Positions 43,801 to 62,267 of a stretch of DNA of 64,000 bases are shown here, piece by piece. Location of the stretch: contig CAZWVM010000001.1 of the NCBI GenBank assembly GCA_964637705.1, positions 29,985-93,984 on the forward strand. Direction: 5' to 3'. The notes below the pieces were generated by a model. That model made no database searches, had not been told where the DNA came from, and saw nothing but the letters and a program-made list of their open reading frames with translations. A program made the translations under genes and the position numbers. Within the stretch, counting starts at the first letter, position 1. Each line of letters starts with the position of its first letter. Source of the DNA: an uncultured bacterium (lineage in GTDB: Bacteria; UBA8481).

Positions 43801-46800
43801 CAGGCGCTTCGGGCAACGCGAGCGGCCGAGGCTCGAGGTGACGGCGAGATCCGTGAGCGGGATCTTCGGGCGCTCGGCGAGGAACGCGGCGTAGCGGGCC
43901 GCGAGTTCCCGCAGGGCGGGTTCGGTACGAGCCGAGAGCCACAGGTGATTCCAGGTCGTGCCGTCTCGCCTCTCGTCCCGGTCCTCGCCCGGTCCTCCCT
44001 CCACGATGGCATGTGCGTTCGTGCCCCCGAAGCCGAACGAACTGACGCCCGCCAGTCGCTCACCCTCCCACGGCCGGCGCTCCGACGCGATCGTGAACGC
44101 CGTCCCCGCGATCGGGAGGCGCGGATTCATCGACGTGTAATGCAGTTGCCGGGGAATCTCGGCATGGCCGAGCATCAGGACGACCTTGATGAGACCCGCG
44201 ATCCCGGCCGCGCTCTCGAGGTGACCGATGTTCGCCTTCACCGACCCGATGATGCAGGGAGCCCCGTCCCGTCCCTCGCCGAGCGCCTCCCGGATCGCCC
44301 CGACCTCGATGGGGTCGCCGAGAGCCGTGCCCGTGCCGTGTGCCTCGACATAGCCGATCGCGCCCGGTTCGACCCCTGCGTCGCGGAGTGCGCGGCGGAT
44401 CACGTCCACCTGGGCCGGCCCGTTCGGCGCGGTCAGGCCGTTCGAACGGCCGTCCTGGTTCACGGCCGTGCCGCGAATGACGGCGAGGACGCGGTCCCCG
44501 TCGCGCCGGGCGTCCGCGAGGCGCTTCAGCACCACGATGCCGCACCCCTCGGACCTCACGTACCCGTCGGCCTTCGCGTCGAAGGCCTTGCACCGGCCGT
44601 CCGGCGCCATGAGGCCCGCCTTCGAGAAGGAGATGGTGTACTCGGGCGAGAGGACGAGGTTCACCCCGCCGGAGAGAACCAGGTCGCATTCGCCGCCGCG
44701 CAGGGCCCGAACGCCCTGGTGGAGAGCCACGAGCGAGGAGGAGCAGGCCGTGTCGACCGCGACGCTCGGTCCACGCAGGTCGAGGAAATAGGAGAGGCGG
44801 TTGGCGGTGACGGAGAGCGCGGTGCCGGTCCCGGCATAGATGTCCGTCCCGCCGTTGGACGCCAGCAGCATCCGGGCGTAGTCGAAGTTGCTCACGCCGA
44901 CGAAGACCCCGGTGTTCGTGCCGGCCAGGCCGTCGGCCGCCACGCCCGCGTCCTCCAGCGCCTCCCAGCTCACCTCCAGGAGCAGGCGTTGCTGCGGGTC
45001 CAGGCTCTCCGCCTCGCGCGGCGATAGCCCGAAGAAGTCGGCGTCGAAGTCGCCGACGCCGTCGAGAAAGCCGCCCCATTTCGTCGTCGTCTTACCCGTC
45101 GCGTCCGGGTCGGGATCGTAGAGCGCCGCCGCATCCCACCGGTCCGCCGGCACCTCGCGGACCGCGTCCACGCCGTCGCGCAGGAGGTTCCAGAACGATT
45201 CCGCGTCCGGCGCGCCGGGGAAGCGGCAGGCCAGGCCGATGACCGCGACCGGTTCGCGGTCGCCTGGATCCGTCGGTTTCGCTGAGGCACGGCGCGCTGC
45301 GCCCCCGCGCGTCTCTCCGCCCAGGAACGAGACGAGCGCCGAGACGGTCGGGTGGTCGTAGAGAAGGGTCGGCGGCAGATCGCGGCCGAGCATCGCGGCC
45401 ATTTCGCCCGAGACCTGGACCGCGCCGGCGGAGTCGAGGCCGTAGGAAGCGAAGGAGGCCCGGGGATCGATCGAGGAGGCGGGAATACCGAAGCGCCGCG
45501 CCAGGATCCCGAGGAGTTTCGTCCGGATGTCGTCGCCCGAGGCGGTCTCCCCCGCCCCGGCCGGCCCCGGCTCACGCCTGACCGCCACCGCCTCGAGCGT
45601 TCCGTCGAGGAACGCCTTCCGGCAGGCGCCGCGCATCACCTTGCCGCTCGAGGTCTTGGGCAGGGCGTTGGGCTTCAACAGGACGACGGCGTGCACGGGC
45701 ACGCCGTGTTCCTCGACGATTCTCTCGCGCAGGCGCCCCAGGACCTCGTCGGCGTCGATCCTGCGGAGCCAGGTCCGCTCGACTTCCTGGACGACGACGA
45801 TCCGTTCCCCCTCCCCGGTCTCGATCGCGAAGGCCGCGGCGCCGGAGGCGCGCAGGGCGGGGTGAGCCGTCTCCGAGGTCAGTTCCAGGTCCTGCGGGTA
45901 ATGGTTGAGACCGTTGACGATGATCATGTCCTTGATCCGGCCCGTCACGAAGAGCTCGCCGCCGTGCAGGAATCCCAGGTCGCCGGTGCGCAGCATCGGC
46001 CCCTCGCCGGAACCGGCGATCCGGCCGTCGAACACGTCCCGAGTCTCTCCGGGCCTGTTCCAGTAGCCGCCGGCCACGATCCGGCCCCCGACCCAGATCT
46101 CTCCGACCCGATCCTCCGGGCACGCATCGCACGACTCCGGTTCCACGATCCGGACCGTCGTCTCGGAGACCGGCACTCCGCAGCCCACGATCGGCACCGC
46201 GCCGGGTGCATGCTCAGCGATGGCCCGGACCCGGTGTCGCGCCAATTCCTCCGCGTCCACGTAGAGGACCGTGGCCGCCCGGTCCGCGGGATTCGTCGTC
46301 ACCTTCAGCGTCGATTCGGCGAGACCGAAGCCCGGGGTGAGAACGTTGCGCCCCAGGCCGCACGGCGCAAAGGCCTCGTGGAAACGGTCGAGCGTCTCGG
46401 CGCGCACCGTCTCCGCCGCGTTCAGGGCGACGCGCCAGCTCGAGAGATCGAGCCCGGCCTTCTGCTCGCCGGTGATCTTCTTCGCGCAGAGATCGTAGGC
46501 GAAGTTCGGCGCGGCCGCGTGGGTGCCGCGGTAGCGCGAGATCGCGGCCAACCACCGGCGAGGTCTCTGCAGGAAGGCCGCGGGCGGCATCATGACGCAG
46601 GTGAAGCCCATGAGGAGCGGCTGCAGGAGACCGTAGATCAGCCCCATGTCATGGAAGAGCGGCAGCCAGGTCACCATGACGCTTCCGGGCGCATGTCCCC
46701 AGTTCGCGTCCATGTCGCGGACGTTGTCGAGGATGTGCCGGTGCGTGACCATGACCCCGCGCGGCGCCGAGGTCGAGCCCGAGGTGTATTGCAGGAGCGC

Positions 46801-47280
46801 GAGCGTCTCCGGCCCGATCGCGGGCCGCTGCCACGCGGGGATCTCCTCCCCGCCCTCGGCATCGGTCGCGATCCAGTCGAGCGCACCGAGTTCCGGGTAG
46901 TGCGCGACCTGGGTGTCACGCGCCGCCATCACCCGTGTCGTGGTCAGGACCCGGCGCGCGCCGGCGTCGGAAGCGATGACCGGGAGCCGTCGGTCCGGCC
47001 GGAGACGGCCGGGCGGATAGCATGGGACCGGCACGACGCCGGCGTAGAGGCAGCCGCAGTAGGCGGTGACGAACTCGAGGCCCGAGGGATACAGGAGCAG
47101 GGCCCGGTCTCCCGTCATGCCCCCGGTCGCCAGGCGGGCCGCCAGGACCCGAGCCCGGTGATCCAGGTCACGGAAGGTCAGCCGGCCCGCTTCGGTCTCT
47201 CCGTCCTCCAGGAAGATGCAAGCCGTTCCGCCCGGGTCGGTTTCCGCCCGGCGCGCAAGGACCTCGACAACGGTTCTCAC
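40831..47280 (-). CDS. Loading/first-extension megasynthase, 2149 aa: FAAL-ACP-KS-AT-KR-ACP-Cdock
   Basis: ORF track 40831..47280; start codon is GTG. FAAL: LTFRDLDHRARVLAARL, LQYTSGSTSAPRGVMVTH, ILPKRGRGL-free long insertion region, GDLGFLHGGELFVTGR. ACP: YGLDSAGAVQV. KS: VIGLACRFPG...CSSSLVALH. AT: GHSAGEYAAACAAGV, VAAHSPL. KR: TYLVTGGLGGLGLGLARGL. ACP: FFAMGMDSITAM. C-terminal LRRLESLVGIE. Confidence 0.9.
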   Translation of the reverse strand: MRTVVEVLARRAETDPGGTACIFLEDGETEAGRLTFRDLDHRARVLAARLATGGMTGDRALLLYPSGLEFVTAYCGCLYAGVVPVPCYPPGRLRPDRRLPVIASDAGARRVLTTTRVMAARDTQVAHYPELGALDWIATDAEGGEEIPAWQRPAIGPETLALLQYTSGSTSAPRGVMVTHRHILDNVRDMDANWGHAPGSVMVTWLPLFHDMGLIYGLLQPLLMGFTCVMMPPAAFLQRPRRWLAAISRYRGTHAAAPNFAYDLCAKKITGEQKAGLDLSSWRVALNAAETVRAETLDRFHEAFAPCGLGRNVLTPGFGLAESTLKVTTNPADRAATVLYVDAEELARHRVRAIAEHAPGAVPIVGCGVPVSETTVRIVEPESCDACPEDRVGEIWVGGRIVAGGYWNRPGETRDVFDGRIAGSGEGPMLRTGDLGFLHGGELFVTGRIKDMIIVNGLNHYPQDLELTSETAHPALRASGAAAFAIETGEGERIVVVQEVERTWLRRIDADEVLGRLRERIVEEHGVPVHAVVLLKPNALPKTSSGKVMRGACRKAFLDGTLEAVAVRREPGPAGAGETASGDDIRTKLLGILARRFGIPASSIDPRASFASYGLDSAGAVQVSGEMAAMLGRDLPPTLLYDHPTVSALVSFLGGETRGGAARRASAKPTDPGDREPVAVIGLACRFPGAPDAESFWNLLRDGVDAVREVPADRWDAAALYDPDPDATGKTTTKWGGFLDGVGDFDADFFGLSPREAESLDPQQRLLLEVSWEALEDAGVAADGLAGTNTGVFVGVSNFDYARMLLASNGGTDIYAGTGTALSVTANRLSYFLDLRGPSVAVDTACSSSLVALHQGVRALRGGECDLVLSGGVNLVLSPEYTISFSKAGLMAPDGRCKAFDAKADGYVRSEGCGIVVLKRLADARRDGDRVLAVIRGTAVNQDGRSNGLTAPNGPAQVDVIRRALRDAGVEPGAIGYVEAHGTGTALGDPIEVGAIREALGEGRDGAPCIIGSVKANIGHLESAAGIAGLIKVVLMLGHAEIPRQLHYTSMNPRLPIAGTAFTIASERRPWEGERLAGVSSFGFGGTNAHAIVEGGPGEDRDERRDGTTWNHLWLSARTEPALRELAARYAAFLAERPKIPLTDLAVTSSLGRSRCPKRLGVVAENAASMAAALEAAARGEEHEGLVTGEVLPGDPGVVFLYTGHGSIYPGMGADLYEREPVFRRTIDRCDAILRPLLDASLCDALYRDTDRLKRMDWSQPALFALQYALTELWGSWGVRPAAVAGHSAGEYAAACAAGVMTFEDGLALVAERGRLMQTLPPDGAMAAVMADEAVVREAIPEGEDLAVAVSNSPVNTILSGRRAALESAIAKLAARGLKCTRLEIPVAAHSPLVEPILAAFERFAGGVRFSRPRIPLMSNVSGGAAGDEVTTAGYWVRHFRETVRFGENLRALDGAGHRVFLEIGPHPTLLGIAEENVGRTGRCRAASLDRERPAARQIRLALGALFAGGIAIDDAALLRASGGRRIALPTYPFQRRRYWIRGEGPAAVPRPHEASDNLSSVAWPAVAASRPERAPGACLISGAGEALRNELAALIEARGGIVLDESRAADATAAILLAPDRGGDPEPCGEDFLRVAGLAKAMTGRPDGARLLIVTRDAQQVRPDDRVAGLSQSWLWGLGRNIPLEHPDVVVRLVDLDAEAGANEIIAELGSGDDEEEIAYRAGARHGARIEPGVPDTRPVAIRRDATYLVTGGLGGLGLGLARGLARRGASQLLLVGRTGAATAERRAAVEAIEALGARVAVRAADVGDTAIVATLEQALDGLPPLRGIIHAAGSGRKRRIDGLTAEDLEPLLAAKARGALNLDRLARGRTLDFFACLSSMVAAWGAAEQAHYVATNHFLDLFAARRSAAGAPTVSIGLGPVSGAGMLHEGGAGNLERMGLAFWTVDEAVEVVLRRAGSRLPRIVAARIDWATYRGVHEARRSRPLFSRLGSQPVATTAAAPIAPAAPIAPAAPRATFVDALEGLDPGAARERLARHLAAALADVLRLDAENLDRDAGFFAMGMDSITAMQFKRRLEKGMGRSLPATAVFNYPNVNALADHLVGAIAPSAPVDRPAPRAAAPSAASARAGGDGFEESLRRLESLVGIE
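41235..41292 (-). repeat. 18-bp x 3 tandem repeat encoding (IAPAAP)2-TTAAAP linker before the C-terminal ACP of the loading gene
   Basis: ggcgccgcaggcgctatg x2 plus a degenerate third copy. Confidence 0.7.
45510..47280 (-). other. Fatty acyl-AMP ligase (FAAL) starter domain
   Basis: N-terminal ~590 aa of the loading gene, with adenylate-forming cores and a downstream ACP instead of a CoA-ligase context. This architecture is established for lipopeptide/lipoketide initiation. Confidence 0.75.
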
Positions 47281-47634: not shown

Positions 47635-48174
47635 CTAGATTTCCGGCAGTTTCGCGGCTTCCTTGCCCTTCTTCTGCTCCTGCATGTGGCTGGCGACCTT
47701 CTGTCCTTCCTCGAACTGGTCGATGAAGTACTGGTGCATCCGGGCCGGGTCGAAATCCAGGAGCGTGCCGCCCGTCTCGAAGTGCATGATGAAGACCTTG
47801 CCCACGGCATACGTCGTGGCTCCGGCGAAGATCGGCATCGAGACGGCCCCGATGAAGGTGCCGACGACGGGCACGAGCTTCAGGAGGCTCCCGATCGCCC
47901 CTTGAGCGATCGTGGTCGCCACGAGGCTACCGATGAGAGAAGCGATGATGGCCTTGCCCCGGTTCTCGGAATACTTGATGTCGTAGTGACCGGCGATCTC
48001 CTCGACCAGTTTCAACTGCACCGCGGTGACGGCGAGGATATCCGCGAAAGGATAGGGAATGAGCCCCGCACCCATGGCCCACCACATGTAATTCCGAGTC
48101 GCCTGCTTCGCCCGCGTTTCGCGGGAAAGCTCGGCGGCAGGATCCTTTTCCGGGTTGTCGTTCGTGCTCGTCAT
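47635..48174 (-). CDS. DUF697/YcjF-like small protein, paralogue 1 (179 aa)
   Basis: ORF track. Core YMWWAMGAGLIPYPFADILAVTAVQ...TYAVGKVFIMHFETGGTLLDFDP is shared with the two other paralogues. AGGAGA sits 5-10 nt upstream of the ATG. Confidence 0.7.
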   Translation of the reverse strand: MTSTNDNPEKDPAAELSRETRAKQATRNYMWWAMGAGLIPYPFADILAVTAVQLKLVEEIAGHYDIKYSENRGKAIIASLIGSLVATTIAQGAIGSLLKLVPVVGTFIGAVSMPIFAGATTYAVGKVFIMHFETGGTLLDFDPARMHQYFIDQFEEGQKVASHMQEQKKGKEAAKLPEI

Positions 48175-48240
48175 ATATCTCCTGAAAATTCTGCGCCCGG
48201 CGGCGTAAAAAGCAAGCGGAATTATCGTCGGGGATAATCA

Positions 48241-48269
48241 TTGACTCCCTCGAGGCCCGGGCGTACATT
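48241..48269 (+). promoter_or_regulatory. Candidate sigma70-type promoter TTGACT-N17-TACATT for the DUF697-small TM-secretin operon
   Basis: Read directly in the divergent 48175-48347 gap, ~80 nt upstream of the GGAGG-preceded ATG at 48348. Confidence 0.3.
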
Positions 48270-48347
48270 TTCCCCGTTCGAGGTCGATTTCCCATGGAGT
48301 TTCGCGATGGAGATTGGCCGAGCCTCAAAGACCCCCGGAGGTGCGTG

Positions 48348-48845
48348 ATGACAGAAACGGCGACAGTGGTGGAATCGAAGGACGCCAAGGCGAAGGAAAT
48401 CGTCAAGAACTACATGTATTGGACCATGGGAGCGGGGCTGATTCCCTATCCGTTGGTCGATCTTGCGGCCGTCATCGGAATCCAGATCAAGATGACCAAG
48501 GATTTGGCCGAACTGTATGAGGTTCCCTTCCGTGAGAACGCCGTGAAGTCGATCGTCGGATCGCTCCTGGGCGGCGTCACGTCCTCCTCCATCGCTTTCG
48601 GCAGCATCGGCCTGCTCGCGGCGAGCCTCGTGAAGATGGTTCCCTTCATCGGGACGGCCCCCGGTCTCGTCACCGTGCCCCTGATCTCCGGCGCCGTGAC
48701 CTACGCCGTGGGCAAGGTCTTCATCATGCACTTCGACACGGGTGGCACGCTCCTGGACTTCGACCCGGTGAAGGTCCGCGAGTATTTCCGCGAGTCCCTC
48801 AAGGAAGGCGAGAAACTGGCCAAGGAGATGAAGAGCTCCAAGTAG
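48348..48845 (+). CDS. DUF697/YcjF-like small protein, paralogue 2 (~165 aa)
   Basis: ORF track frame 48294..48845; start moved to the internal ATG at 48348 (MTETATVVESKD), preceded by GGAGG and matching the N-termini of the paralogues. Core NYMYWTMGAGLIPYPLVDLAAV...TYAVGKVFIMHFDTGGTLLDFDP. Confidence 0.7.
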   Translation: MTETATVVESKDAKAKEIVKNYMYWTMGAGLIPYPLVDLAAVIGIQIKMTKDLAELYEVPFRENAVKSIVGSLLGGVTSSSIAFGSIGLLAASLVKMVPFIGTAPGLVTVPLISGAVTYAVGKVFIMHFDTGGTLLDFDPVKVREYFRESLKEGEKLAKEMKSSK

Positions 48846-48941
48846 GCGTCAAGCGGGGCCATGCGGGCCTTTCGTGTCTTCCCTCGCGGAAGAGACGGAC
48901 GCCGCATGGCCCCGGTCGTTTAGGGAGGCAGGAGCGGACCC

Positions 48942-49127
48942 ATGATCAACGTCGTCGTCCCTACGCTCTACGTGGCACTGAGCCTCATGGTCGGGCTCCT
49001 GGGCAGGAAGAAGCTCCTCGGGTTCTGGGGATTCTTCCTGGGCTCCCTCATCCTGACTCCGGTCATGGGTTTTCTCGGCTTGATCTTCTTCGAAATGATC
49101 TCCCTCGTGGGAGAATCGAAAAACTGA
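48942..49127 (+). CDS. Small hydrophobic two-TM membrane protein (61 aa)
   Basis: ORF track. GGAGG/AGGAG RBS 7-17 nt upstream; GC3-rich codons; two predicted TM helices (VVPTLYVALSLMVGLLG; LGSLILTPVMGFLGLIFF). Confidence 0.5.
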   Translation: MINVVVPTLYVALSLMVGLLGRKKLLGFWGFFLGSLILTPVMGFLGLIFFEMISLVGESKN

Positions 49128-49173
49128 CGCGTTCCGGCCGCCGCGCGCGGACGCGATCCAAGGAGCGATTGCG

Positions 49174-50388
49174 ATGACGACGAGACTGATCGACGGGCTG
49201 AATCGCGCCGGCGCGTTCCGGCGCGGACTCGGGACCTGCCTGCTCGGGGCGCTCCTTCTCCTGGCCGGTTCCACGAGCACGACGGCCCAGGCCCAGGAAT
49301 CTCCCGCCCGCTATCGCACGGTCGTGTATTACCTCGAGAACGCCGACGCCGCCAAGCTCGTCACCGTCCTCAACGCCGTCTACAGCCCCGGCAGCGGCGG
49401 AGCCCTCGGGCTCGGAAACCAAGGCGTCTCCATCGTCGCCGATGTCGGTACCAATTCCCTCGTCCTGAGCGCGCCCGAGGAGACCATCGACGCGGTCCTG
49501 GAGACGGTCAAGAAGCTCGACATCGCCCCCTTCCAGGTGCTCATCGAATGCATCATCCTGGAAGTGCGGCTCGACGCCGCGAAGAACCTCGGCGTGGACT
49601 GGACCTGGAAGAACTCCAACGTGGACTTCGGCATCCGCGGGAACGCGCCCGGCGTGGGCGTTCTCGAGGCCCTCGCCTTCACGGGTCTCAAGCAGGGCGT
49701 GATCGGCGACCAGCGCACGCTCCAGGGGGTCATCCAGGCTCTCGTCCGCGACAATCGCACCCGCATCGTGGCCACGCCGCGCATCTTCGCGGCGAACAAC
49801 CGGGAGGCCTCGATCACGATCGGCGACAACGTCCCCGTTCTCTTGAACCAGGCCACGACCGTGGGCGGCGTGACGCAGAACACCTTCAGCTACACCGATC
49901 TCGGGATCAAGCTGGTCGTGACGCCCCACATCAACCGGCGGCGCCAGACCGTGCTCGAGGTCTTCCAGGAGATCAAGTCCTTCTACGACATGAACAACCT
50001 CCCCACGGGCGTCAACGTCCAGAACGCGAACCCCATCATCTCCACGCGCAACAGCCGCACCGTGGTCACACTCGGGGACAGCGAATCGGTCGTCATCGGC
50101 GGCCTCATCCGGACCGACCGGACGAGGTTGGAGAGCCGCGTGCCGGTCCTGGGAGATATCCCGATCATCGGCGCGGCCTTTCGTTCCAAGCAGTATCGCG
50201 AAGAGAAGACGGAACTGCTCGTCTTCCTCACCACGCGCGTCGTCACGAACGGCGACGAACTGCGATCCATGGTGAGCGAGCAGGTCGACGACTCCATCTA
50301 CATGGAACAGAGGGCCCAGGACTTCTTCAGCGACACGCACTCGATCCGGAACGGCGCGGGATTCGTGGAGAGTCACATCCTCAGGTAG
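49174..50388 (+). CDS. Secretin (GspD/PilQ/CpaC/pIV superfamily), 404 aa with signal peptide
   Basis: ORF track. N-terminal signal peptide. C-terminal secretin signature SVVIGGLIRTDRTRLESRVPVLGDIPIIGAAFRSKQYREEKTELLVFLTTRVV. Confidence 0.85.
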   Translation: MTTRLIDGLNRAGAFRRGLGTCLLGALLLLAGSTSTTAQAQESPARYRTVVYYLENADAAKLVTVLNAVYSPGSGGALGLGNQGVSIVADVGTNSLVLSAPEETIDAVLETVKKLDIAPFQVLIECIILEVRLDAAKNLGVDWTWKNSNVDFGIRGNAPGVGVLEALAFTGLKQGVIGDQRTLQGVIQALVRDNRTRIVATPRIFAANNREASITIGDNVPVLLNQATTVGGVTQNTFSYTDLGIKLVVTPHINRRRQTVLEVFQEIKSFYDMNNLPTGVNVQNANPIISTRNSRTVVTLGDSESVVIGGLIRTDRTRLESRVPVLGDIPIIGAAFRSKQYREEKTELLVFLTTRVVTNGDELRSMVSEQVDDSIYMEQRAQDFFSDTHSIRNGAGFVESHILR

Positions 50389-50425
50389 TCGAGCGCGCCG
50401 CGCCTCCCGGGGCGGTCGCGGCCGG
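50389..50425. terminator. Possible GC-rich bidirectional terminator hairpin between convergent secretin and binding-protein genes
   Basis: CCGCGCCTCCCGGGGCGGTCGCGG is an imperfect inverted repeat with no U-tract. Confidence 0.2.
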
Positions 50426-51586
50426 TCAGTGGATCTCGGGGTAGATGAACTTTCCGTCCCGGAGAACCTTGAAGAAGACGTGCTCGTCCACGAGGTCCCC
50501 GTTCTCGTCGAAGTCGATCGGGCCCGTCACGCCCTCCGCGGAATAGTTCACCCGGAGTGTGTCCTGCACCGTGACCGGGACCGTGCTCCGGCAGCGATTC
50601 ATGGCCCCCGCCAGCGTCATGACGGCGTCGTAGCCGCGCGCCGCGCGCACGTCCGGGACTTCGCCGTAACGCGCGATGAACTTCTCGTGGAAATCCAGGG
50701 CCGCCGGGCGAATCTCCCGGGGCGAGTAGTTCGTCGCGATCATCGTGCCGTTCGACGCCACCCCCGCCTCGTTCCAGAGGTCGAGCGTGTCCAGCGCGCT
50801 TTTGCCGATGAACGGCGCCGTGATTCCCATCTCCCGGGCCTGGCGCATGAGGAGCGCCGCGGCCGTGGCCGGGCTCTGCAGGAGGATCACGTCGTAGGTG
50901 ACGTCGGACAGCTTGGACAGGAGCGTCCGGAAGTTGGTCTCCTCGGGGTTGAAATGCTGGACCGAGACGATGTCCATGGCCTGCGACTCCCGCGACAGCT
51001 GATACTGGATGGTCGTGGCGAAGGAATTGCCGTCGACATCGTCGGTGTGGATGATCACCGCGCGGCGGATGGGCTTGTATCCGCGGTAGAGTCTCAGGCC
51101 GGCGATCGCCCTGCTGTAATCCTCGTCGCTGGGCAGGAGACGGAAAACGTTTTTGAAGCCGTGCAGGGTGAGATAGGGATCCGTGGCGCCCGTCGACAGG
51201 AACGTGATGCCGCTCTGCTCGTAGATGATCGAGGCGGGCAGGGCCACCTCGGAACTGCGATGGCCGATCACCGCGACCAGGTCCGGATCGGCCGCGAAAC
51301 GCCGGGCGACCCGGCGTCCCTCTTCAGCGGTCACGCCCTCGTCCTCGACCCGGATCACCATGGGCCGGCCCATCACGCCGCCCTTCGCGTTCACCTCGTC
51401 CAGCGCCAGCTGGACCCCCTCGAGAAACCTGTGGGACGGACTGGCCGCGAACGACCAGGCCACGCCCACGACGACATCACCCTTGGAGAAGTAGGCCCGG
51501 ACGGCTCGGTCGTAGGCCGCGTCGTTCCCGCCGCAGGCGGCCAGGAGGACGGCGGCCGCCAGGGCGGCGCCGAGACGCCGGAACAC
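50426..51586 (-). CDS. Periplasmic binding protein type 1 lipoprotein (Leu/Ile/Val-binding, LivJ-like), 386 aa
   Basis: ORF track. Lipobox LLAACGG. PBP1 fold features: alternating beta-alpha pattern and typical Liv-family length. Confidence 0.75.
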   Translation of the reverse strand: MFRRLGAALAAAVLLAACGGNDAAYDRAVRAYFSKGDVVVGVAWSFAASPSHRFLEGVQLALDEVNAKGGVMGRPMVIRVEDEGVTAEEGRRVARRFAADPDLVAVIGHRSSEVALPASIIYEQSGITFLSTGATDPYLTLHGFKNVFRLLPSDEDYSRAIAGLRLYRGYKPIRRAVIIHTDDVDGNSFATTIQYQLSRESQAMDIVSVQHFNPEETNFRTLLSKLSDVTYDVILLQSPATAAALLMRQAREMGITAPFIGKSALDTLDLWNEAGVASNGTMIATNYSPREIRPAALDFHEKFIARYGEVPDVRAARGYDAVMTLAGAMNRCRSTVPVTVQDTLRVNYSAEGVTGPIDFDENGDLVDEHVFFKVLRDGKFIYPEIH

Positions 51587-51593
51587 GCGCGGC

Positions 51594-52565
51594 CTACGGT
51601 TCCGGATTCAGGATGACGGGGAGACCGCCCCGGCCCGATCCGATGACGATGACCTTCGAGTTGGTGCAGGTGGCCAGGTCCCGGGTCGCACGGATGCCTT
51701 CCCACCGCAGGAGGTTCTCGCCGAGCGAGGCCGTCACGGTGCGGTTGTATTGCTCGATCCCGCGCGCCTCGATGGCCTTGCGTTCCGCCTCCCGCTGCTC
51801 GCGGTTGAGCCGGAAGTCGTATTCGAGCATCAACTGCTCCTGCGTCAACTTCGCCTCGATCGCCGACGTCAGGTTCTGCGGCAGCGTGATCCGGCGGACC
51901 ACCACGTTGTCGAGCGTGATGAAGTTCTTTCCCACCGCCGTGAAGGCGCCGACCACCAGCCGCTCCAGCACGCCGCCCTGCGTCGTGAAGAGCTCCTCGG
52001 GCGTGAAGCGCCCGATGACGTTGCGGATCACCGCCTCCACTTCCGGCAGGACGATCACGTTGAGGTAGTCGGGACCGATGCGCTGGTGCAGCACCGGCAG
52101 GAACTGATACTCCGGCTGGTAGCGGATCGAGAGGCTGATCTGGACCGGGAGCCCGTTCACCGTCAGGGCCGTCATCTCGTGGCTGACCGTCTGCTTCCGG
52201 ATGTTGTATACGAAGAACTTGTTGAAGGGATTGATCAGGTGCGTCCCTTCCGGGTAGACCCGGTCCAGGATCGTGCCCCCCTGGAAGCGGCTCCACTCGA
52301 CCCCCGCCTCGCCCGCGTGGACGGTCACCACGAAGAAGGGCCAGAAGAAGAGGACGAAGAGCGTCAGGAGCATCATCCAGATGTAGAAGGAGATCCGGTT
52401 CCGGCGGTAGTAGTCCTTCCCCCACCGGGTCACGGGATTGTCGCGCAGGTGGCCATAGGCGATCCCCAGGCCCCGGGCCGTGGCACGGACCGCGTTCACG
52501 AGATGCGCCCAGGCCCGCGAAAGCGCGCCGGGGACCGCGTCAACAGGTTCCATGCTGGACGACAC
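51594..52565 (-). CDS. SPFH/band-7 (prohibitin/HflK/C-like) membrane protein, 323 aa
   Basis: ORF track. One N-terminal TM (ISFYIWMMLLTLFVLFFWPFFVV), then an SPFH domain and coiled coil EAKLTQEQLMLEYDFRLNREQREAERKAIEARGIE. Confidence 0.8.
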   Translation of the reverse strand: MSSSMEPVDAVPGALSRAWAHLVNAVRATARGLGIAYGHLRDNPVTRWGKDYYRRNRISFYIWMMLLTLFVLFFWPFFVVTVHAGEAGVEWSRFQGGTILDRVYPEGTHLINPFNKFFVYNIRKQTVSHEMTALTVNGLPVQISLSIRYQPEYQFLPVLHQRIGPDYLNVIVLPEVEAVIRNVIGRFTPEELFTTQGGVLERLVVGAFTAVGKNFITLDNVVVRRITLPQNLTSAIEAKLTQEQLMLEYDFRLNREQREAERKAIEARGIEQYNRTVTASLGENLLRWEGIRATRDLATCTNSKVIVIGSGRGGLPVILNPEP

Positions 52566-53316
52566 CTCCCATCGCGGCCCGGGAACAGGTTGCGGCCGGG
52601 CGGGCGGGATCGCACCCCAAGGCCGCGTTCACGAGTCCGGCGAGTTCCTGGACATGATCATTGATGAAGAAATGCCCGCCGTCAAACTCCTTGATCGTCA
52701 CCGGCTCCGTGCTCGCCTCCTGCCACCGCCGGGCCTCCTCGCGGGTCACGTCGTCTCGCCGCCCGATCCAGGCCGAGAGGGGCACGGGCAGGGCCGCGAT
52801 GACCGGCGCCGGTTCGTAGGTGTCGGCCGCCTCGAAATCCGCGCGCAGGATGGGCAGGAAGAGTTCCATCAGTTCCTCGTTCCCGAGGATCTCCTCCGCG
52901 CTGCCGCCCATCGCGCGCAACTCGGCGATCAGGCGGTCCTGCGACATGAGGTGGCGGGGTTCCCCGGTGCGCTTCACGCCCGGGCCGCCGCGGCCCGAGA
53001 CGAACAGGTGCTGCGGGCGCGGTGCGCCGGCCTCGACGGCGCGTAGCGCCAGGAGGTAGGCCAGCAGCGCTCCGAGGCTGTGGCCGAAGACGGCCCAGCG
53101 TTCCGGCCAGCGCCCTTCCATCTGGGCGGCCAGGTCGCATGTCATCGCGTGGACATCGTCGAGAAGCGGCTCGGCCATGCGCCGACCGTGGCCCGGCAGT
53201 TCCAGGGCGATCGGTTCGACGAACGGCGCGAGGTGCGAACAGAGCGCGCGGTAGCCGTAGGCGTTTCCGCCGGAATACGGAAGGCAGACGAGCGCCACCC
53301 GATCCCCGGAGGTCAC
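52540..53316 (-). CDS. Type II thioesterase (alpha/beta hydrolase, GHSLG), ~258 aa
   Basis: C-terminal part of ORF 52540..53790: ALVCLPYSGGNAYGYRAL...WAVFGHSLGALLAYLLA...EFDGGHFF. The first 156 codons of the track ORF overlap the DUF697 gene and are junk. Proposed GTG start is 2 nt after the DUF697 TGA. Confidence 0.8.
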   Translation of the reverse strand: MTSGDRVALVCLPYSGGNAYGYRALCSHLAPFVEPIALELPGHGRRMAEPLLDDVHAMTCDLAAQMEGRWPERWAVFGHSLGALLAYLLALRAVEAGAPRPQHLFVSGRGGPGVKRTGEPRHLMSQDRLIAELRAMGGSAEEILGNEELMELFLPILRADFEAADTYEPAPVIAALPVPLSAWIGRRDDVTREEARRWQEASTEPVTIKEFDGGHFFINDHVQELAGLVNAALGCDPARPAATCSRAAMGGVVQHGTC

Positions 53317-53318
53317 GA

Positions 53319-54005
53319 TCAGGCCCTGCCCGGGGCCTCGGCGCGCGCACCGCGCGCGGGAGAAACCCGGCCGCCCACGCGGAACTCCGCCTCGTAATGC
53401 TCCTTCATCTTCTCGGGGCGGAACGTCAGGAGCGTGCCTCCCGACTCGAAATGCTGGATGAAGACGCGACCGACGGCGTAGGTCGAGGCGGCCGCGACGC
53501 CGGACACGGCGGCCGCACCCGTCAGGTAACCGAGGATCGGGATGGCCTTGAGAATCGAGGCCTTGGCGACGGGCATCCCTCCCACGACGCTCGCGATCAG
53601 GGACTTGCCCAGGTCCCGGCTGAACGGGACACCGTAGAGGAAGGTGAGGCGGCGGAGCATGAGCAGTTGAAGGGCGGAGACCGCGACGAAATCGAGCGCG
53701 ACGGCCGGTATGAGCGCCCCGGCGCCCGCCGACCAGCACATGTACCGCTTGACGATGTCCTCGGCGCGACGCACCCGCTCCGCCTCCCACGCGCGACCCG
53801 CCGTCACCTCGCTCGTCGCGGAGGGAACCGGCAGCCTTCGCTCCGACCGTTCGACGGGCGCCGCGACGGATCGCGCCTTCCGCGCGGGCCGCACGATCTC
53901 GGGCTCGAGCGGAATCGGCGATTCATCGCTCCCGGGGAGCTGGTAGAGGCGTGTCCGTTCCCGCTTCACCTTGCGGCGCGCGGACGGGACACCGGTCTCA
54001 GTCAT
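53319..54005 (-). CDS. DUF697/YcjF-like small protein, paralogue 3 (228 aa, N-terminally extended)
   Basis: ORF track. Core RYMCWSAGAGALIPAVALDFVAV...TYAVGRVFIQHFESGGTLLTF. The start overlaps the ParA-like stop by 8 nt (ATGACTGA). Confidence 0.7.
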   Translation of the reverse strand: MTETGVPSARRKVKRERTRLYQLPGSDESPIPLEPEIVRPARKARSVAAPVERSERRLPVPSATSEVTAGRAWEAERVRRAEDIVKRYMCWSAGAGALIPAVALDFVAVSALQLLMLRRLTFLYGVPFSRDLGKSLIASVVGGMPVAKASILKAIPILGYLTGAAAVSGVAAASTYAVGRVFIQHFESGGTLLTFRPEKMKEHYEAEFRVGGRVSPARGARAEAPGRA

Positions 54006-55149
54006 AGCTCATCTCCTCGTCCGATCTCCTCCGCGGCTTCACGCGGGGCTCCGCCTCCTCGTCGCCGGCGGGCGAAGCCGCCTCGAAGGAGGAAAGCCCG
54101 GTCGCGATGTCGCGTGCCGGTTCGGGCGGCTTCTCCCGGACCCGGGCCGGCTCCGGGGCGCGCACCGGAACCTCCTTGACGAGTTCCGGCGCCGCCTCGA
54201 GGAGAGGATCAAGCCCCAGCGCCAGGCGGACGTAACCGTCGTAATCCTCCTTGGCGCGGCTGCGGCCGGGCGCGGAGAAGATGGTGCGCCCTCCGTCCAG
54301 CGCCCTCACGTATTCCGCGCTCGTGCGGATCACCTCGGGCAGGAGCTGCCCGGGATAATCCCGCTTCAGGCGCTCGAGGGCCTCGATCGAGGTCTTCTCG
54401 CGGCGGTCATAGCGCGAGTAGAGGATCTTCACGGCCGGCGGATCCACGTGGAAGGTGTCGCAGATCGACGCGATCTCGCGCATCGTCAGCTCGATGCCCT
54501 TGAATGAGAAGGCGTCGGCGCCCGTGGGGATCGTCACCGCGTCGGCGGCGCAGATGGTGGAGATGACGGCCGCGCCGAGCGACGGCGGGCAGTCGATGAC
54601 GACGAGGTCGAAGCCGAGGGCGCGGAGCGCCTCGCAGACGCCCTTCACGGCGTTCTTTTGCGAAACGGGGCTGGCGAGCGCGGAATCGAGGAGCCCGTTC
54701 TGGAGCGAGGACGGGAGGAGCGAGAGGCCGGGAGCGATCTCGCGCAGCGCCGCCGCCGTGTCCGCCTCCGGGTCCTGCCACGTGTCGTAGAAGACCGGGT
54801 CGTCCTCCTCCGCCGTCACGCCCAGGGCGAGGGAGGCCGAGGCCTGGGAATCGAGGTCGAGGAGGCAGGTGCGAAACCCGGCCTGGGCGGCGCGCACGGC
54901 GAGAGCGACCGAGGCCGTGGTCTTGCCGATCCCGCCCCTCATATTCACGTGGGCGATGACGCGGAAGGAGAAATCCGCGCCGCGTTCCTCCAAGAACCCG
55001 CGGACGCGCGCCGAGGATATCGCGCGGGCCTCGGCCGCGCCGGCGCCGAGCGCCCGTGCGGCCAGCGGGGCGGGCATCCTCAGGAATCCGGCCAAGTCAT
55101 GGAGCGTCGGTCCGGACGTCTCCCCTGCCGTGTGCTCGACTTCGTTCAT
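53998..55149 (-). CDS. ParA/MinD-family deviant Walker-A ATPase, ~383 aa
   Basis: ORF track frame 53998..55326. Start trimmed to M60 (MNEVEHT; ATGA overlap with the ABC exporter stop). Motifs NMRGGIGKTTASVALA and VVIDCPPSLG; Pro/Glu-rich C-terminal tail. Confidence 0.8.
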   Translation of the reverse strand: MNEVEHTAGETSGPTLHDLAGFLRMPAPLAARALGAGAAEARAISSARVRGFLEERGADFSFRVIAHVNMRGGIGKTTASVALAVRAAQAGFRTCLLDLDSQASASLALGVTAEEDDPVFYDTWQDPEADTAAALREIAPGLSLLPSSLQNGLLDSALASPVSQKNAVKGVCEALRALGFDLVVIDCPPSLGAAVISTICAADAVTIPTGADAFSFKGIELTMREIASICDTFHVDPPAVKILYSRYDRREKTSIEALERLKRDYPGQLLPEVIRTSAEYVRALDGGRTIFSAPGRSRAKEDYDGYVRLALGLDPLLEAAPELVKEVPVRAPEPARVREKPPEPARDIATGLSSFEAASPAGDEEAEPRVKPRRRSDEEMSYD

Positions 55150-56804
55150 GACGGGCCTCCGTTCGCCGCGATCCGGCCGTAATCCATCTTGATGACCCGG
55201 TCCGCGACCGGGAAATACCTGTCGTCGTGAGTCGCCGCGATCACCGTCTTGCCGCGGCGCTTGAAGTCCGCGAGGATCTCCTCGTAGAAGAACCGCCGGA
55301 ACGCCGGGTCCTGGTCGGCCGCCCACTCGTCGAAGACATACACCGGCTTGTCGTCGAGCATGGCGACGAGAAGCGCGAGGCGCTTCTTCTGCCCGCTCGA
55401 GAGATCCTGGTGGGTGAACCTCCCGTCACGGAAGGACGTCTTCCGGTCCAGCTCCAGCATCTTCAGGAGCTCGTTCACGCGCGCTTCGTCGATCCCGTTT
55501 CCGCCGTAGATGCGATCAAAGAGGTGGTAGTCCGAGAAGATGGCCGCGTAGAGCTCCCGGTACTCGCCGATGTTCTGCGGCGAAAGCACCCAGCCGTCCC
55601 AGCGGATGATGCCGCCCTCGGCGGCGTAGAGTCCCGTCAAGAGCTTCAGGAAGGTCGACTTGCCGCTGCCGTTTCCGCCGACGAGGAAGACCGTCTCGCC
55701 GCCGCGAATCGTGAGATCGATCGGGCCGACGTTAAAAAGCGCCCTTCCCTCCTCGTCACGATACGCGAAAACCACGTCCTCGAAGTGGATCTCCCGCGGC
55801 GCCGCGCACTTGCCTCTCACGGGCACCGGTTCGGCCGGTTCGCCCAGCGCCTCCTCGAGCCGGTAAAGGTTGGAGATCGACACGTTGGCCATGGCGAAGA
55901 CCTGGATCGACGAGACGACGGCGGTGAGCGGCCCGACGATGAAGAGGATGGCGGCCGTGATCCTCACCATCTGGTCCGTGTAGGTGGCGCTGAAGCGGGG
56001 CAGGATGAAGACCAGGATCCCGATCAGGACGTAGAAGAAGGATTGCGAAAACGTGGCCATCCCGGCGAACTGCGTGCCCGTGCGGATCTTCAGGTCACGC
56101 GTGCTGTTCGAGATCCCGCTCAGGACGTCGAAGACGTCGTCGCTCTTGCGGCGGTTCAGCCGGATCTCCTTGAATCCGTTCAGGACGTTGGTGAGCGAGC
56201 CGAAGAACTCGATCTCCCTCTGCGTCGAAAGCTGGAGCGCGGACCGGATCGTCTTCTTCTCCTTGAAATAGTGCGCGATCCCGGCGGCGACGATCGCGGC
56301 AGCCAGGAGGAAGGCCGACGGCGAAAGCCAGGCGATGTAGAGGCTGCAGAAGAGAACCATCACGCCGTTCTGGAAGGTCTGGATGATGAAGGGAGCCGCC
56401 TGCGATATCGTCTGCGTCTCCGTCGTGATGCGCGTGTAGATCTGCGCCTGCCCCAGGCGTTCGAGGAGGAGGAGCTCCGAGTTCCGGACCTTGTTCGAGA
56501 GACGTACGCGCATCTTGTTGATCATCGTCTCCGCCAGGACGATGGACCGCACGAGGATGACACGGTTCGTGAGGATGTAGAGCGCCATCGCGACGAGGAA
56601 GATGAGGAAGAGGCGGGGGCTGGGATGGCTCGGATCCGCGGCCGTCGAGCCGGCGTTGATCAGGCCGAGAAGCAGCGCGTTGGCGATTCCGGAGATCACG
56701 GAAATCGTCACGAGCTGCGCGACCGAATCCTCGGATTCGCGTCTCACCAGGTCCAGGATCTGGGTGTATTGCTTCGGCTTCACGCCCTCACCGTCGTCGT
56801 TCAC
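55146..56804 (-). CDS. ABC exporter, fused TMD-NBD, SyrD/PvdE-type 'cyclic peptide transporter' family, 552 aa
   Basis: ORF track. Six N-terminal TM helices. NBD motifs: GGNGSGKST (Walker A), LSSGQKKRLALL (signature), VYVFDEWAADQD (Walker B). Confidence 0.85.
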   Translation of the reverse strand: MNDDGEGVKPKQYTQILDLVRRESEDSVAQLVTISVISGIANALLLGLINAGSTAADPSHPSPRLFLIFLVAMALYILTNRVILVRSIVLAETMINKMRVRLSNKVRNSELLLLERLGQAQIYTRITTETQTISQAAPFIIQTFQNGVMVLFCSLYIAWLSPSAFLLAAAIVAAGIAHYFKEKKTIRSALQLSTQREIEFFGSLTNVLNGFKEIRLNRRKSDDVFDVLSGISNSTRDLKIRTGTQFAGMATFSQSFFYVLIGILVFILPRFSATYTDQMVRITAAILFIVGPLTAVVSSIQVFAMANVSISNLYRLEEALGEPAEPVPVRGKCAAPREIHFEDVVFAYRDEEGRALFNVGPIDLTIRGGETVFLVGGNGSGKSTFLKLLTGLYAAEGGIIRWDGWVLSPQNIGEYRELYAAIFSDYHLFDRIYGGNGIDEARVNELLKMLELDRKTSFRDGRFTHQDLSSGQKKRLALLVAMLDDKPVYVFDEWAADQDPAFRRFFYEEILADFKRRGKTVIAATHDDRYFPVADRVIKMDYGRIAANGGPS

Positions 56805-56987
56805 GTTGCCGCCCCGCCGCGTTCCCGGGGCGCGGCAGGCCGGGAACCTCGGGTTCCGGGACCGCCGTCCCTATCAAACAGCAGCTTCCCCCGGACGGCA
56901 AGCGGTTTCAACGAACAGGGCACGTTCGACAACGCTTACGACCCGTGATGAATGCGGCGGAGCGGTTTTCGAGGCGCGACCGTCTCG

Positions 56988-59114: not shown

Positions 59115-59167
59115 CACGCCCTTCGCGTCATCCTTTCTCGCTCCCGCCGCCCCGGTTCGCGGCGCCG

Positions 59168-59908
59168 CTAGGGTATATCCTCGAACGTCCGAATTGGCAA
59201 GGCGCCCCCCTCCAGGCAAAGAGCCGCCGCGTAGCCGGGGGCCACGTCGAGCCCGGTCAGGCTCCAGCGCGAGGCCTCGTTGGCGTCGCCCCCGATCGCC
59301 GTGAGCGCGGCCGGAACGCCCGGCCTCAACTCGACATCGAAGGAATCGAGCGGCATCGAGAGCCCCTCGCCCACGGCCTTGATGAACGCCTCCTTGCGCG
59401 TCCAGCAGAGGTAGAAGGCCTGCCGCCGGTCCTCCCCTTCGATCGTGTCCCAGGCCGCGCGCTCGCGCGCCGAGAAGTTCTGCCGGGCGATGTCGTCCAT
59501 CTCGTCGATCTCCCGGACGGCGTGCTCCACGTCCACGCCGATGCGGCGGTCGCGGACGGCGGCCAGGAGGACGTAATCGCCGGAGTGGGAAAGGTTGAAG
59601 CGCACCGGAGGCGAGGATATGGGTGCGGCGACCTCCGGCTTCCCGCGAGGGCCCGTCGAAAAACGAACCCGGCCGGGGTCCTCGCCCAGGTAGCGCGCCA
59701 GGATCGTCCTCTGGCGCGCCCGCGCGATCGTGAAGGCGCGGGCCAGGTGATCGAAGCGGAACCGCGCCGCGCGTTCCCGCTCGGCGGGATCGAGAAGCGA
59801 AGCCAGCTTCTCGGAGCAGAAATGCCACGTCCGGAGATCGATCCTCCAGGCATGAACCTCTCCCTCCGGAAGCCGGTCCTTCTCCTCCATGGGAATCCGC
59901 CAGGTCAT
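59168..59908 (-). CDS. Sfp-type 4'-phosphopantetheinyl transferase, 246 aa
   Basis: C-terminal 246 aa of track ORF 59168..62275. Motifs FNLSHSGDYVLLA, IGVDVEH, WTRKEAFIKAVG. The upstream part of the track ORF is antisense to the cyclase gene. Confidence 0.8.
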   Translation of the reverse strand: MTWRIPMEEKDRLPEGEVHAWRIDLRTWHFCSEKLASLLDPAERERAARFRFDHLARAFTIARARQRTILARYLGEDPGRVRFSTGPRGKPEVAAPISSPPVRFNLSHSGDYVLLAAVRDRRIGVDVEHAVREIDEMDDIARQNFSARERAAWDTIEGEDRRQAFYLCWTRKEAFIKAVGEGLSMPLDSFDVELRPGVPAALTAIGGDANEASRWSLTGLDVAPGYAAALCLEGGALPIRTFEDIP

Positions 59909-60031
59909 CGGCTGACAGGATAATCCCGCAAGCCGCTCCGGGAAAGCCCGGGCGGCCGGGAACTCGACCTCGGGGCGTGGGGCGAGATCCCTTGGCGGGA
60001 CGGCGGGATCTGATATTCTGGCCTCGATGTC

Positions 60032-62212: not shown

Positions 62213-62267
62213 CCGTCCGGCGGCGCCGGGTTGCGGGGCGTATCCCGCGCAGCCTGCCCTTGATTCC

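Follow-up and report, generated by a model that had tools for sequence, protein, structure and literature searches.

Organization of the locus

We analysed a 64,000-nucleotide (nt) stretch of contig CAZWVM010000001.1 (assembly GCA_964637705.1), from an uncultured bacterium of the lineage UBA8481, which is referred to below as the window. Beside a polyketide synthase/nonribosomal peptide synthetase (PKS/NRPS) cluster it carries three paralogous genes for DUF697 proteins, D1, D2 and D3 (paralogues 1, 2 and 3). The third directly follows the gene for a ParA-like ATPase, and its product carries near its start a short basic peptide, here called the tag. The genes at issue are listed with their positions in the window:

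47635 to 48174, minus strand: D1, DUF697 protein of 179 amino acids (aa), without N-terminal tag (Pfam PF05128, E 8.4e-14)
48348 to 48845, plus strand: D2, DUF697 protein of 165 aa, without tag (PF05128, E 2.7e-9)
50426 to 51586, minus strand: LivK-like periplasmic binding lipoprotein (Peripla_BP_6), final gene in the operon (PF13458, E 3.4e-37)
51594 to 52553, minus strand: prohibitin-like SPFH/Band 7 membrane protein (PF01145, E 2.3e-22)
52540 to 53316, minus strand: type II thioesterase (TEII), GTG start (PF00975, E 1e-37)
53319 to 54005, minus strand: D3, DUF697 protein of 228 aa (PF05128, E 1.9e-13)
53940 to 53981, minus strand: N-terminal tag of D3, residues 9-22, ARRKVKRERTRLYQ, proposed ParA-binding peptide
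53998 to 55149, minus strand: ParA/Soj/McdA-like ATPase of 383 aa (Pfam AAA_31, E 2.2e-29; CbiA, E 1.5e-14)
55146 to 56804, minus strand: cyclic-peptide export ATP-binding cassette (ABC) transporter of the SyrD/PvdE/YojI type, with fused transmembrane and nucleotide-binding domains (TIGR01194)

The three open reading frames (ORFs) that a preliminary description of the window had named as DUF697 paralogues were confirmed. They score 52.1 (D1), 37.4 (D2) and 50.9 bits (D3) against PF05128, all above the gathering cut-off of 27.7, and by BLASTP D1 and D3 share 40% identity (E 2e-32) and D2 and D3 39% (E 5e-31), while D1 as query finds D2 at E 4e-46. The two shared motif cores pointed out in that description, GAGLIP.P..D..AV and TYAVG[KR]VFI[MQ]HF[ED].GGTLL.F, are present, largely invariant across homologues and the most conserved parts of the family. 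The overlap of the ATPase gene with D3 and the 2-nt gap to the TEII gene were also read directly in the sequence. Its statement that the three genes frame the cluster has to be revised, since all of them lie at one end, flanked by the PKS/NRPS genes (2685-47280) on one side and by the genes for the sensor and the phosphopantetheinyl transferase (PPTase) on the other (57-60 kb). The suggested Pfam check upheld the DUF697 assignment, and searches with hidden Markov models (HMMs) from Pfam, NCBIfam and PADLOC placed D1-D3 in no characterised family.

D1-D3 are short-form DUF697 inner-membrane proteins. Homologues of D1 are abundant, short (about 160 aa) and spread over many phyla, and its AlphaFold 2 (AF2) model (pLDDT 83.9) consists of six helices rich in small residues, the central ones moderately hydrophobic. 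A fold search with this model against the PDB gave nothing below E 0.8, and nothing meaningful came from a profile search of PDB sequences. D3 differs from this plan by an 85-aa basic, disordered-looking N-terminal extension that precedes the DUF697 domain. Some DUF697 homologues (P0089-P0091, P0108, P0110, P0111, P0113 and P0117-P0120) also contain a SHOCT domain (PF09851), a bihelical module that has been suggested as an anchor at the inner membrane face. In a PADLOC search the DUF697, SPFH, binding and secretin proteins matched no defence system, and the ABC exporter and the ATPase gave only generic ATPase-domain matches. In our literature searches we came across no study of the function of DUF697, YcjF or YcjX.

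The gene junctions are tight. The ATPase stop and the D3 start overlap by 8 nt (ATGACTGA, read on the minus strand), the GTG start of the TEII gene (53316) lies 2 nt past the D3 stop codon TGA, the TEII and SPFH genes overlap by 14 nt, and 7 nt separate the SPFH gene from the binding-protein gene. At the upstream end, the exporter stop overlaps the ATPase start in the sequence ATGA, which sets the ATPase start at 55149; an alternative start at 55326 was replaced on this ground. Because of these overlaps and tiny gaps, the exporter, ATPase, D3, TEII, SPFH and binding-protein genes form one compact minus-strand operon. Promoter and terminator scans stayed at chance level, with no terminator inside the operon, and an Rfam scan of 46.5-60.5 kb detected no RNA family. 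The exporter scores 353.6 bits against TIGR01194, above the cut-off of 286.2. The SPFH protein reaches 80.4 bits against PF01145 (cut-off 23.6), shows a hydrophobic N-terminal segment in its translation and has prohibitin-2 and prohibitin-1 as its best solved relatives (PDB, E 4e-18). The binding protein shows an LAAC lipobox in its N-terminal region.

D1 lies 354 nt upstream of the first PKS gene, on the same strand, and D2 is divergent from it. Both are preceded by a good Shine-Dalgarno sequence, which for D2 is GGAGG, 8 nt upstream. The two genes are a head-to-head inverted duplication that is still detectable in the DNA: the arms 47680-47890 and 48623-48833 are 73% complementary over 211 nt. 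There is a second pair of arms, 47991-48094 and 48407-48510 (complementarity of the arms 71-73%), and a single sigma-70-like match (48241-48269) falls within the 173 bp between the divergent genes.

A conserved accessory cassette beside NRPS/PKS genes

We searched 80 species-representative DUF697 genome loci with the proteins of the window, taking at least 100 bits as the threshold for SPFH proteins and at least 300 bits for orthologous exporters. The control consisted of 76 loci chosen regardless of DUF697, namely the remainder of a metagenome scan with the ATPase alignment, which returned mostly generic ParAs. Neighbours were found at these frequencies:

SPFH homologue: 30/80 DUF697 loci, 0/76 controls
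Orthologous cyclic-peptide exporter: 25/80 DUF697 loci, 0/76 controls
PKS/NRPS: 29/80 DUF697 loci, 0/76 controls
TEII: 14/80 DUF697 loci, 0/76 controls
Binding protein: 12/80 DUF697 loci, 0/76 controls

Where full flanks are available, the SPFH gene is present at 23 of 44 DUF697 loci. Exporter orthologs in cassette loci score 430-510 bits, and PPTase homologues recur among these loci as well. The commonest order is DUF697, ABC exporter, SPFH, in some cases the binding protein, and then NRPS; Limisalsivibrio acetivorans, for example, has DUF697, ABC exporter, Band_7, Peripla_BP_6 and NRPS genes with 4-nt overlaps. Like it, Desulfopila sp. IMCC35008 is a culturable organism with the cassette. 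Other contigs show ABC/DUF697/NRPS or DUF697/AT/NRPS, and at six loci (L001, L004, L009, L010, L013 and L169) a DUF697 gene stands directly ahead of megasynthase genes. Loci with multiple DUF697 copies are common (L002, L007, L019-L021, L051, L065, L088 and L169). The loci come from Bacteroidota, Ignavibacteriales/Kapaibacterium, Acidobacteriota, Verrucomicrobiota and Desulfobacterota, and also from Planctomycetota (Scalindua), Chlorobiaceae, SAR324 and Deferribacterota.

DUF697, a SyrD-type ABC exporter and a prohibitin-like SPFH protein therefore form a cassette (module 1) that is conserved beside NRPS/PKS genes in many phyla, with the LivK-like lipoprotein, TEII and PPTase as optional extras. 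The counts for SPFH, exporter and PKS/NRPS genes, each against none of 76, support the earlier proposal of a membrane-associated module tied to export or immunity. The neighbourhood analysis suggested at the time likewise revealed conserved co-occurrence, with SPFH at 30 of the 80 loci and with a ParA-like gene at 8 of 10 loci selected through the ATPase. We found no paper on an SPFH-exporter-NRPS cassette or on the combination of DUF697, exporter and SPFH.

Two related metagenomic loci, L168 and L169, both have the six-gene operon. The first half of L169 reads ABC exporter, ParA, DUF697 (228 aa), TEII, Band_7 and binding protein, and the second half secretin, DUF697, a 67-aa ORF, PPTase, DUF697 and FAAL-PKS, so that the triplication of DUF697 is repeated there in the same relative positions as in the window. 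D1 shares 66% identity with its ortholog in L002, and its counterpart in L169 stands directly before the FAAL-PKS gene. D2 is 55% identical to its positional counterparts in L169 and L002, and D3 is 56% identical to the DUF697 protein that follows ParA in L168. D3 is the most divergent of the three paralogues, and the identities did not single it out as the original DUF697 of the cassette.

The ATPase and its tagged downstream partner

Ten loci were selected through orthologues of the ParA-like ATPase (L087-L090 and L167-L172); of those retrieved in the metagenome scan, only L087-L090 carry orthologs. A DUF697 gene lies directly downstream of the ATPase gene, often overlapping it, at eight of the ten (L087, L088, L090 and L168-L172). 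In the converse direction the link is rare, as only one of the 80 DUF697 genome loci carries the ParA-like gene (L065, Scalindua). This gene supplements the common cassette and does not belong to it.

The D3 tag follows the consensus IKVKRxRRRLYE, or as a pattern [IV]K[VI]KRxR[RK]RLY[ED]. It is found in the gene downstream of the ATPase in the window and at nine of the ten ParA-selected loci, L089 being the exception, and reads, for instance, KRRTRRRLYE in L170, TKVKRTRRRLYE in L171 and KIARPRRRIYE in L172; in L065 it is IKVKRSRTRLYE. D1 and D2 lack it. In the alignment of tagged proteins, R15, R17, R19 and Y21 (numbered as in D3) are invariant. In all six frames of the whole window the pattern matches once, and in 2.17 Mb of retrieved DNA it has 15 matches, 8 of them at the N-terminal position after the ATPase. 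A word-indexed search found the tag in 8 of 235 homologues. When a profile of tagged short-form DUF697 proteins was searched against 1.84 billion cluster representatives, 4,200 of them matched at E up to 0.001; among the 150 matches listed, 141 were new, and 55 of these 141 carry the tag at residues 5-42, which makes tagged DUF697 proteins a broad subclass. In a forward test, the homologue P0325, picked by its tag alone, proved to be encoded downstream of a ParA-family gene, the two genes overlapping by 8 nt.

The locus L167 (Desulfonema magnum, CP061800.1) is informative in this respect. Its post-ATPase protein (10968-11507, 179 aa) is not a DUF697 protein and has a coiled coil and a recombinase/helix-turn-helix (HTH)-like C-terminus, yet it carries the same tag, MTERPVIKVKRTRRRLYDPL. 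The tag thus follows the ATPase and not the DUF697 fold. This partner also points to a second, possibly DNA-linked, class of cargo for the ATPase subfamily. In L089 (7600-8255) repetitive and apparently non-coding DNA takes the place of a tagged gene after the ATPase ortholog, and the opposite strand carries a DUF697 gene and an ABC exporter gene about 5 kb upstream.

This second module consists of a distinct ATPase subfamily and a downstream gene, usually for a DUF697 protein, whose product has a conserved basic peptide at its start. In ParA/MinD systems, the partner protein binds the ATPase and stimulates it via a positively charged, disordered N-terminus, and the gene neighbourhood of these ATPases usually reveals their cargo (PMC10241942). 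The D3 tag fits this N-terminal-peptide rule, which supports a presumed direct interaction of D3 with the ATPase.

The ATPase subfamily is coherent (45-72% identity), with the Walker A motif N[LM][RK]GG[IVT]GKTT, in the window NMRGGIGKTT. At the signature position of the deviant Walker A motif (xKGGxxK[ST]), 26 of 33 members have Arg, including that of the window, and 7 have Lys; the P-loop lysine is present. The Walker A' and B residues D98, D100, Q102, D186, P188 and P189 are invariant, and the motif PS[SA]L[EQD]N is a further mark of the subfamily. The AF2 model (pLDDT 86.3) matched Soj, ParA and McdA in Foldseek at E 1e-17 to 1e-15 with target-normalised TM-scores of 0.85-0.92, and an HMM of the ATPase matches Soj and McdA chains. 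The protein has a small three-helix N-terminal domain and an acidic, proline-rich C-terminal tail that is not conserved. Long ParAs (V. cholerae ParA2 and P1 ParA) align with it over 360-375 columns, including the extra N-terminal part. Pfam gave only a spurious sub-threshold match for the N-terminal 63 aa, and an HTH is an impression from the model. No amphipathic membrane-targeting helix was noticed at the conserved C-terminal end when the alignment was inspected by eye, no scan having been run. The best ParA from a search of 72,556 plasmids shares only 33% identity with the ATPase, no ParB domain was found in the scanned neighbour genes, and NCBIfam partition models scored far below their cut-offs. 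A ParABS partition system was rejected on the grounds of the membrane DUF697 partner, the lack of a detected ParB and this low plasmid identity.

Assembly line and neighbouring genes

The accessory region at 47.6-60 kb contains all three DUF697 genes as well as export/membrane, sensor and PPTase genes. The remaining features of the cluster and this region are:

40831 to 47280, minus strand: loading megasynthase FAAL-ACP-KS-AT-KR-ACP, first gene of the assembly line (Pfam domains)
48942 to 49127, plus strand: conserved two-transmembrane-helix protein of 61 aa, after D2 (51-56% identity to the L169 and L002 counterparts)
49174 to 50388, plus strand: short secretin of 404 aa with one Secretin_N and one Secretin domain (PF00263, E 3.4e-43; PF03958, E 6.8e-16)
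56988 to 59117, minus strand: dCache_1 sensor protein, start approximate (PF02743, E 2.4e-15)
59168 to 59809, minus strand: Sfp-type PPTase (PF01648, E 5e-18; PF22624, E 1e-11)

Pfam domains place the PKS/NRPS assembly line on the minus strand at 2685-47280. Downstream of the loading megasynthase come KS-AT-KR-ACP, multi-module NRPS genes with C-A-PCP modules and a reducing PKS module. This organization predicts that the cluster product is an acylated peptide-polyketide hybrid; since the assembly line starts with a FAAL domain, the product is probably acylated and possibly membrane-active. A 315-aa ORF (39887-40834, minus strand) between two PKS genes has only a sub-threshold AAA_16 match. GC content is about 70% across the window, with a dip to 62-67% over the accessory genes (46-58 kb) compared with 70-73% in the PKS/NRPS genes.

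Orthologs of the secretin adjoin DUF697 pairs in L002 and L169. With 404 aa and one N-domain it is unusually short, type II, type III or type IV pilus genes are absent from its surroundings, and in L169 it is accompanied by a gene for an outer-membrane beta-barrel protein. The 61-aa protein, for which Pfam gave no match, has counterparts in the same position in L169 (67-aa ORF, 11995-12198) and L002 (69-aa ORF, 3149-3358). These 61-69 aa proteins share an invariant GRK..GFWG motif, and a D2-type DUF697 gene always precedes them.

An ortholog of the sensor is present in L002. In the same position, L168 has dCache plus guanylate cyclase, and for L169 only Guanylate_cyc is listed. The C-terminal 404 aa of the sensor gave no Pfam or PDB sequence match; inspected by eye, these approximately 400 residues comprise a beta-rich part and then four hydrophobic helices, which recalls the layout of ligand-gated ion channels. 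The 183-nt gap between sensor and exporter contains, upstream of the exporter start, the near-perfect palindrome CCGGAACC-CGA-GGTTCCCGG (about 56840-56860, minus strand), which could be an operator or a stem-loop. The PPTase domain covers residues 823-1020 of a 1035-aa ORF (59168-62275, minus strand), that is, only its C-terminal approximately 200 residues; this long ORF overlaps the dCache ORF.

Proposed function and alternative explanations

We favour, with moderate confidence, the explanation that D3 is a membrane adaptor that would couple a ParA-like positioning ATPase to an export or protection platform for the cluster product. From the observed gene content and gene pairings we infer a mechanism along the following lines. 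The ABC half-transporter would export the acylated peptide-polyketide across the inner membrane; syringomycin and pyoverdine precursors are examples of peptides that leave the cell through transporters of the TIGR01194 type. A prohibitin-type SPFH ring would delimit a membrane patch around the exporter, as SPFH/prohibitin proteins form membrane rings around client machines. The DUF697 paralogues could be small integral partners of this patch, in which tagged and untagged copies would perhaps assemble into a hetero-oligomer. The cytoplasmic tag of D3 would dock on the ATP-bound dimer of the ParA-like protein and stimulate its ATPase activity, like the N-termini of ParB, MinE and McdB, and the platform would be positioned, spaced or assembled in an ATP-dependent manner. 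In this lineage, the untagged D1 and D2 may pair with the secretin and the conserved 61-aa membrane protein.

Several observations weigh against this explanation. At L171, L172 and L173 the dyad of ATPase and DUF697 gene occurs with no exporter, SPFH or NRPS gene nearby. Because these dyads stand without the cassette, the dyad is best seen as an autonomous module that was inserted into the cassette in the lineage of the window, and its cargo need not be an export platform. Moreover, the interaction of tag and ATPase is one that we infer from synteny and the family rule, and since the signature lysine is mostly Arg, the ATPase cycle may differ from that of canonical ParA. The DUF697 fold has no solved relative in either the PDB fold search or the profile search. 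In L002, the orthologs of D1 and D2 adjoin the secretin and the sensor, with no PKS visible on the 8.5-kb contig. Finally, more than half of the DUF697 loci, for example those of Saprospiraceae, lack the cassette. DUF697 is therefore not confined to such clusters and would have a more general role. As a tentative extension, DUF697 proteins might be general membrane receptors or adaptors for cytoplasmic P-loop NTPases (YcjX, fused GTPases, and ParA-type ATPases via the portable RxRRRLY tag). In natural-product clusters, the dyad with the ATPase might organise the prohibitin-ringed exporter, and perhaps a membrane-associated megasynthase, into discrete, positioned sites of assembly and export.

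The main rival is self-protection, which we consider rather unlikely as the principal explanation; most of the data agree with it, and it does not exclude an export platform. DUF697 and SPFH proteins would stabilise the inner membrane of the producer against its own lipopeptide or against secretin stress, in a manner resembling the phage shock protein (Psp) response, and the ATPase would only regulate assembly. A possibly membrane-active product, as predicted from the FAAL start, would fit such a role, and D1 and D2 adjoin the secretin in the window, L169 and L002. The Psp response guards against mislocalised secretins (PMC5596341), and in many proteobacteria ycjX, which nearly always adjoins ycjF, is part of psp operons (32 of 81 operon structures; PMC3041696; PMC9239133). 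However, ycjXF have never been shown to be linked physiologically to Psp (PMC9239133). The operon has no PspA, PspB or PspC, no Psp domain was found in the scanned ORFs (47.6-62.3 kb), and a secretin is adjacent in only one of the 86 DUF697 loci first analysed (L002), to which the later ParA-selected L169 is added.

We regard it as improbable that the cluster is carried by a mobile element for which the ATPase and the tagged protein serve in DNA partition or regulation. The N-terminal three-helix domain of the ATPase would then bind DNA as in type Ia ParA, and its link to DUF697 would be unrelated to export. The extra N-terminal helical domain and the alignment with long ParAs agree with such a pair, as do the recombinase/HTH-like C-terminus of the L167 partner, the integrase and MqsRA toxin-antitoxin pair adjoining L172, and the drop in GC at 46-58 kb. 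In contrast, the partner is a membrane protein without a DNA-binding domain at eight of the ten loci, the ATPase gene is wedged between exporter and DUF697 genes with ATGA-type overlaps, the best of 72,556 plasmids is 33% identical compared with 45-72% within the subfamily, and no ParB-like gene was found among the scanned ORFs of the region. This reading is disfavoured, as is the still less probable one that the DUF697 genes are housekeeping genes for membrane proteins lying near the cluster by chance, with D1 and D2 as part of a separate secretin/sensor unit: many DUF697 loci lack the cassette and L002 has D1- and D2-type genes, secretin and sensor with no PKS on its contig, but the gene order recurs across phyla against 0/76 in the controls, DUF697 directly precedes a megasynthase at the six loci named above, and L169 reproduces the triplication in the same relative positions.

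The DUF697/YcjF family is large, with neither a known function nor a solved structure, and our data link it to two testable things: an export cassette whose genes are listed as "other" by genome-mining pipelines, and a new class of ParA/MinD partners whose hallmark is a short, conserved peptide at the N-terminus. For lipopeptides from uncultured phyla, the cassette could be relevant to export, self-tolerance and heterologous production. The tag provides a sequence rule for finding ATPase cargo in other genomes and is a simple experimental handle. In the literature that we searched, the partner class (DUF697 with the RxRRRLY tag), the cargo presumed for it and the cassette of DUF697, exporter and SPFH genes in NRPS/PKS clusters appear to be new. 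If the positioning model is true, this would be the first ParA-type system that organises an export site for secondary metabolites; if DUF697 is a general receptor, the YcjF family would gain a function and a membrane export platform would join the cargos of ParA/MinD ATPases.

Comparison with known systems

The preliminary description had drawn a parallel to the ycjX-ycjF operon of E. coli. As an analogy this stands: in YcjX-YcjF of E. coli and Yersinia, a DUF697 membrane protein is also encoded directly after a cytoplasmic P-loop NTPase, the two are presumed partners, and psp operons provide contextual links to envelope stress. YcjF has about 353 aa, whereas the proteins of the window have 165-228 aa; the NTPase of the window is ParA/Soj-like and not DUF463, its partner is tagged, and the context is NRPS/PKS and not psp. 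The closer identity did not hold, as no YcjF model of NCBIfam matches D1-D3 and no DUF463 gene was seen among the scanned ORFs of the region; these results and the short length exclude a YcjF equivalog. NCBIfam matches were sub-threshold only, namely slr1306_fam for D1 and D3 (18.6-23.5 bits, cut-off 490) and the CrcB model for D2, and the NCBI name "YcjF family protein" on homologues is meant at the domain level. The genes ycjXF often extend psp operons without a shown function (PMC3041696; PMC9239133). A Psp system as such was rejected, as the scanned ORFs at 47.6-62.3 kb include no PspA, PspB or PspC.

The exporter resembles SyrD and PvdE in that it scores above the TIGR01194 cut-off and is encoded within an NRPS/PKS cluster; to our knowledge, the characterised SyrD and PvdE loci have no DUF697, SPFH or LivK-like genes. 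With HflK/C-FtsH, stomatin-NfeD, YqiK-YqiJ and prohibitin-m-AAA, the operon shares an SPFH gene that is co-operonic with genes for small multi-helix membrane proteins and an ATP-driven membrane machine. Such SPFH complexes, HflK/C-FtsH among them, form rings or cages around their client. In the system described here, the putative partner is DUF697 in place of NfeD or YqiJ, and the client would be an ABC exporter and not a protease.

A ParA/MinD-type ATPase within the operon of a membrane secretion apparatus is also found for BcsQ (cellulose synthase), TadZ/CpaE (Tad pilus, with a secretin), FlhG and VirC1. BcsQ likewise has RGG instead of KGG in its Walker A motif, and the ATPase matches the BcsQ HMM weakly (54 bits, cut-off 157.85). 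These organisers differ in their partner and apparatus, and the operon of the window has no cyclic di-GMP module. A further comparison is that with ParA-ParB, MinD-MinE, McdA-McdB and PomZ-PomX. The ATPase shares with them a Soj/McdA-like fold, and its Walker A' and B residues, like those of Walker A apart from the signature position, are invariant within the subfamily; the next gene downstream is that of the partner, which has a short, positively charged and probably disordered N-terminal peptide; and the gene neighbourhood points to the cargo. Unlike in these systems, arginine mostly replaces the signature lysine, a DUF697 protein integral to the membrane takes the role of partner, and an export patch in the membrane is presumed to be the cargo.

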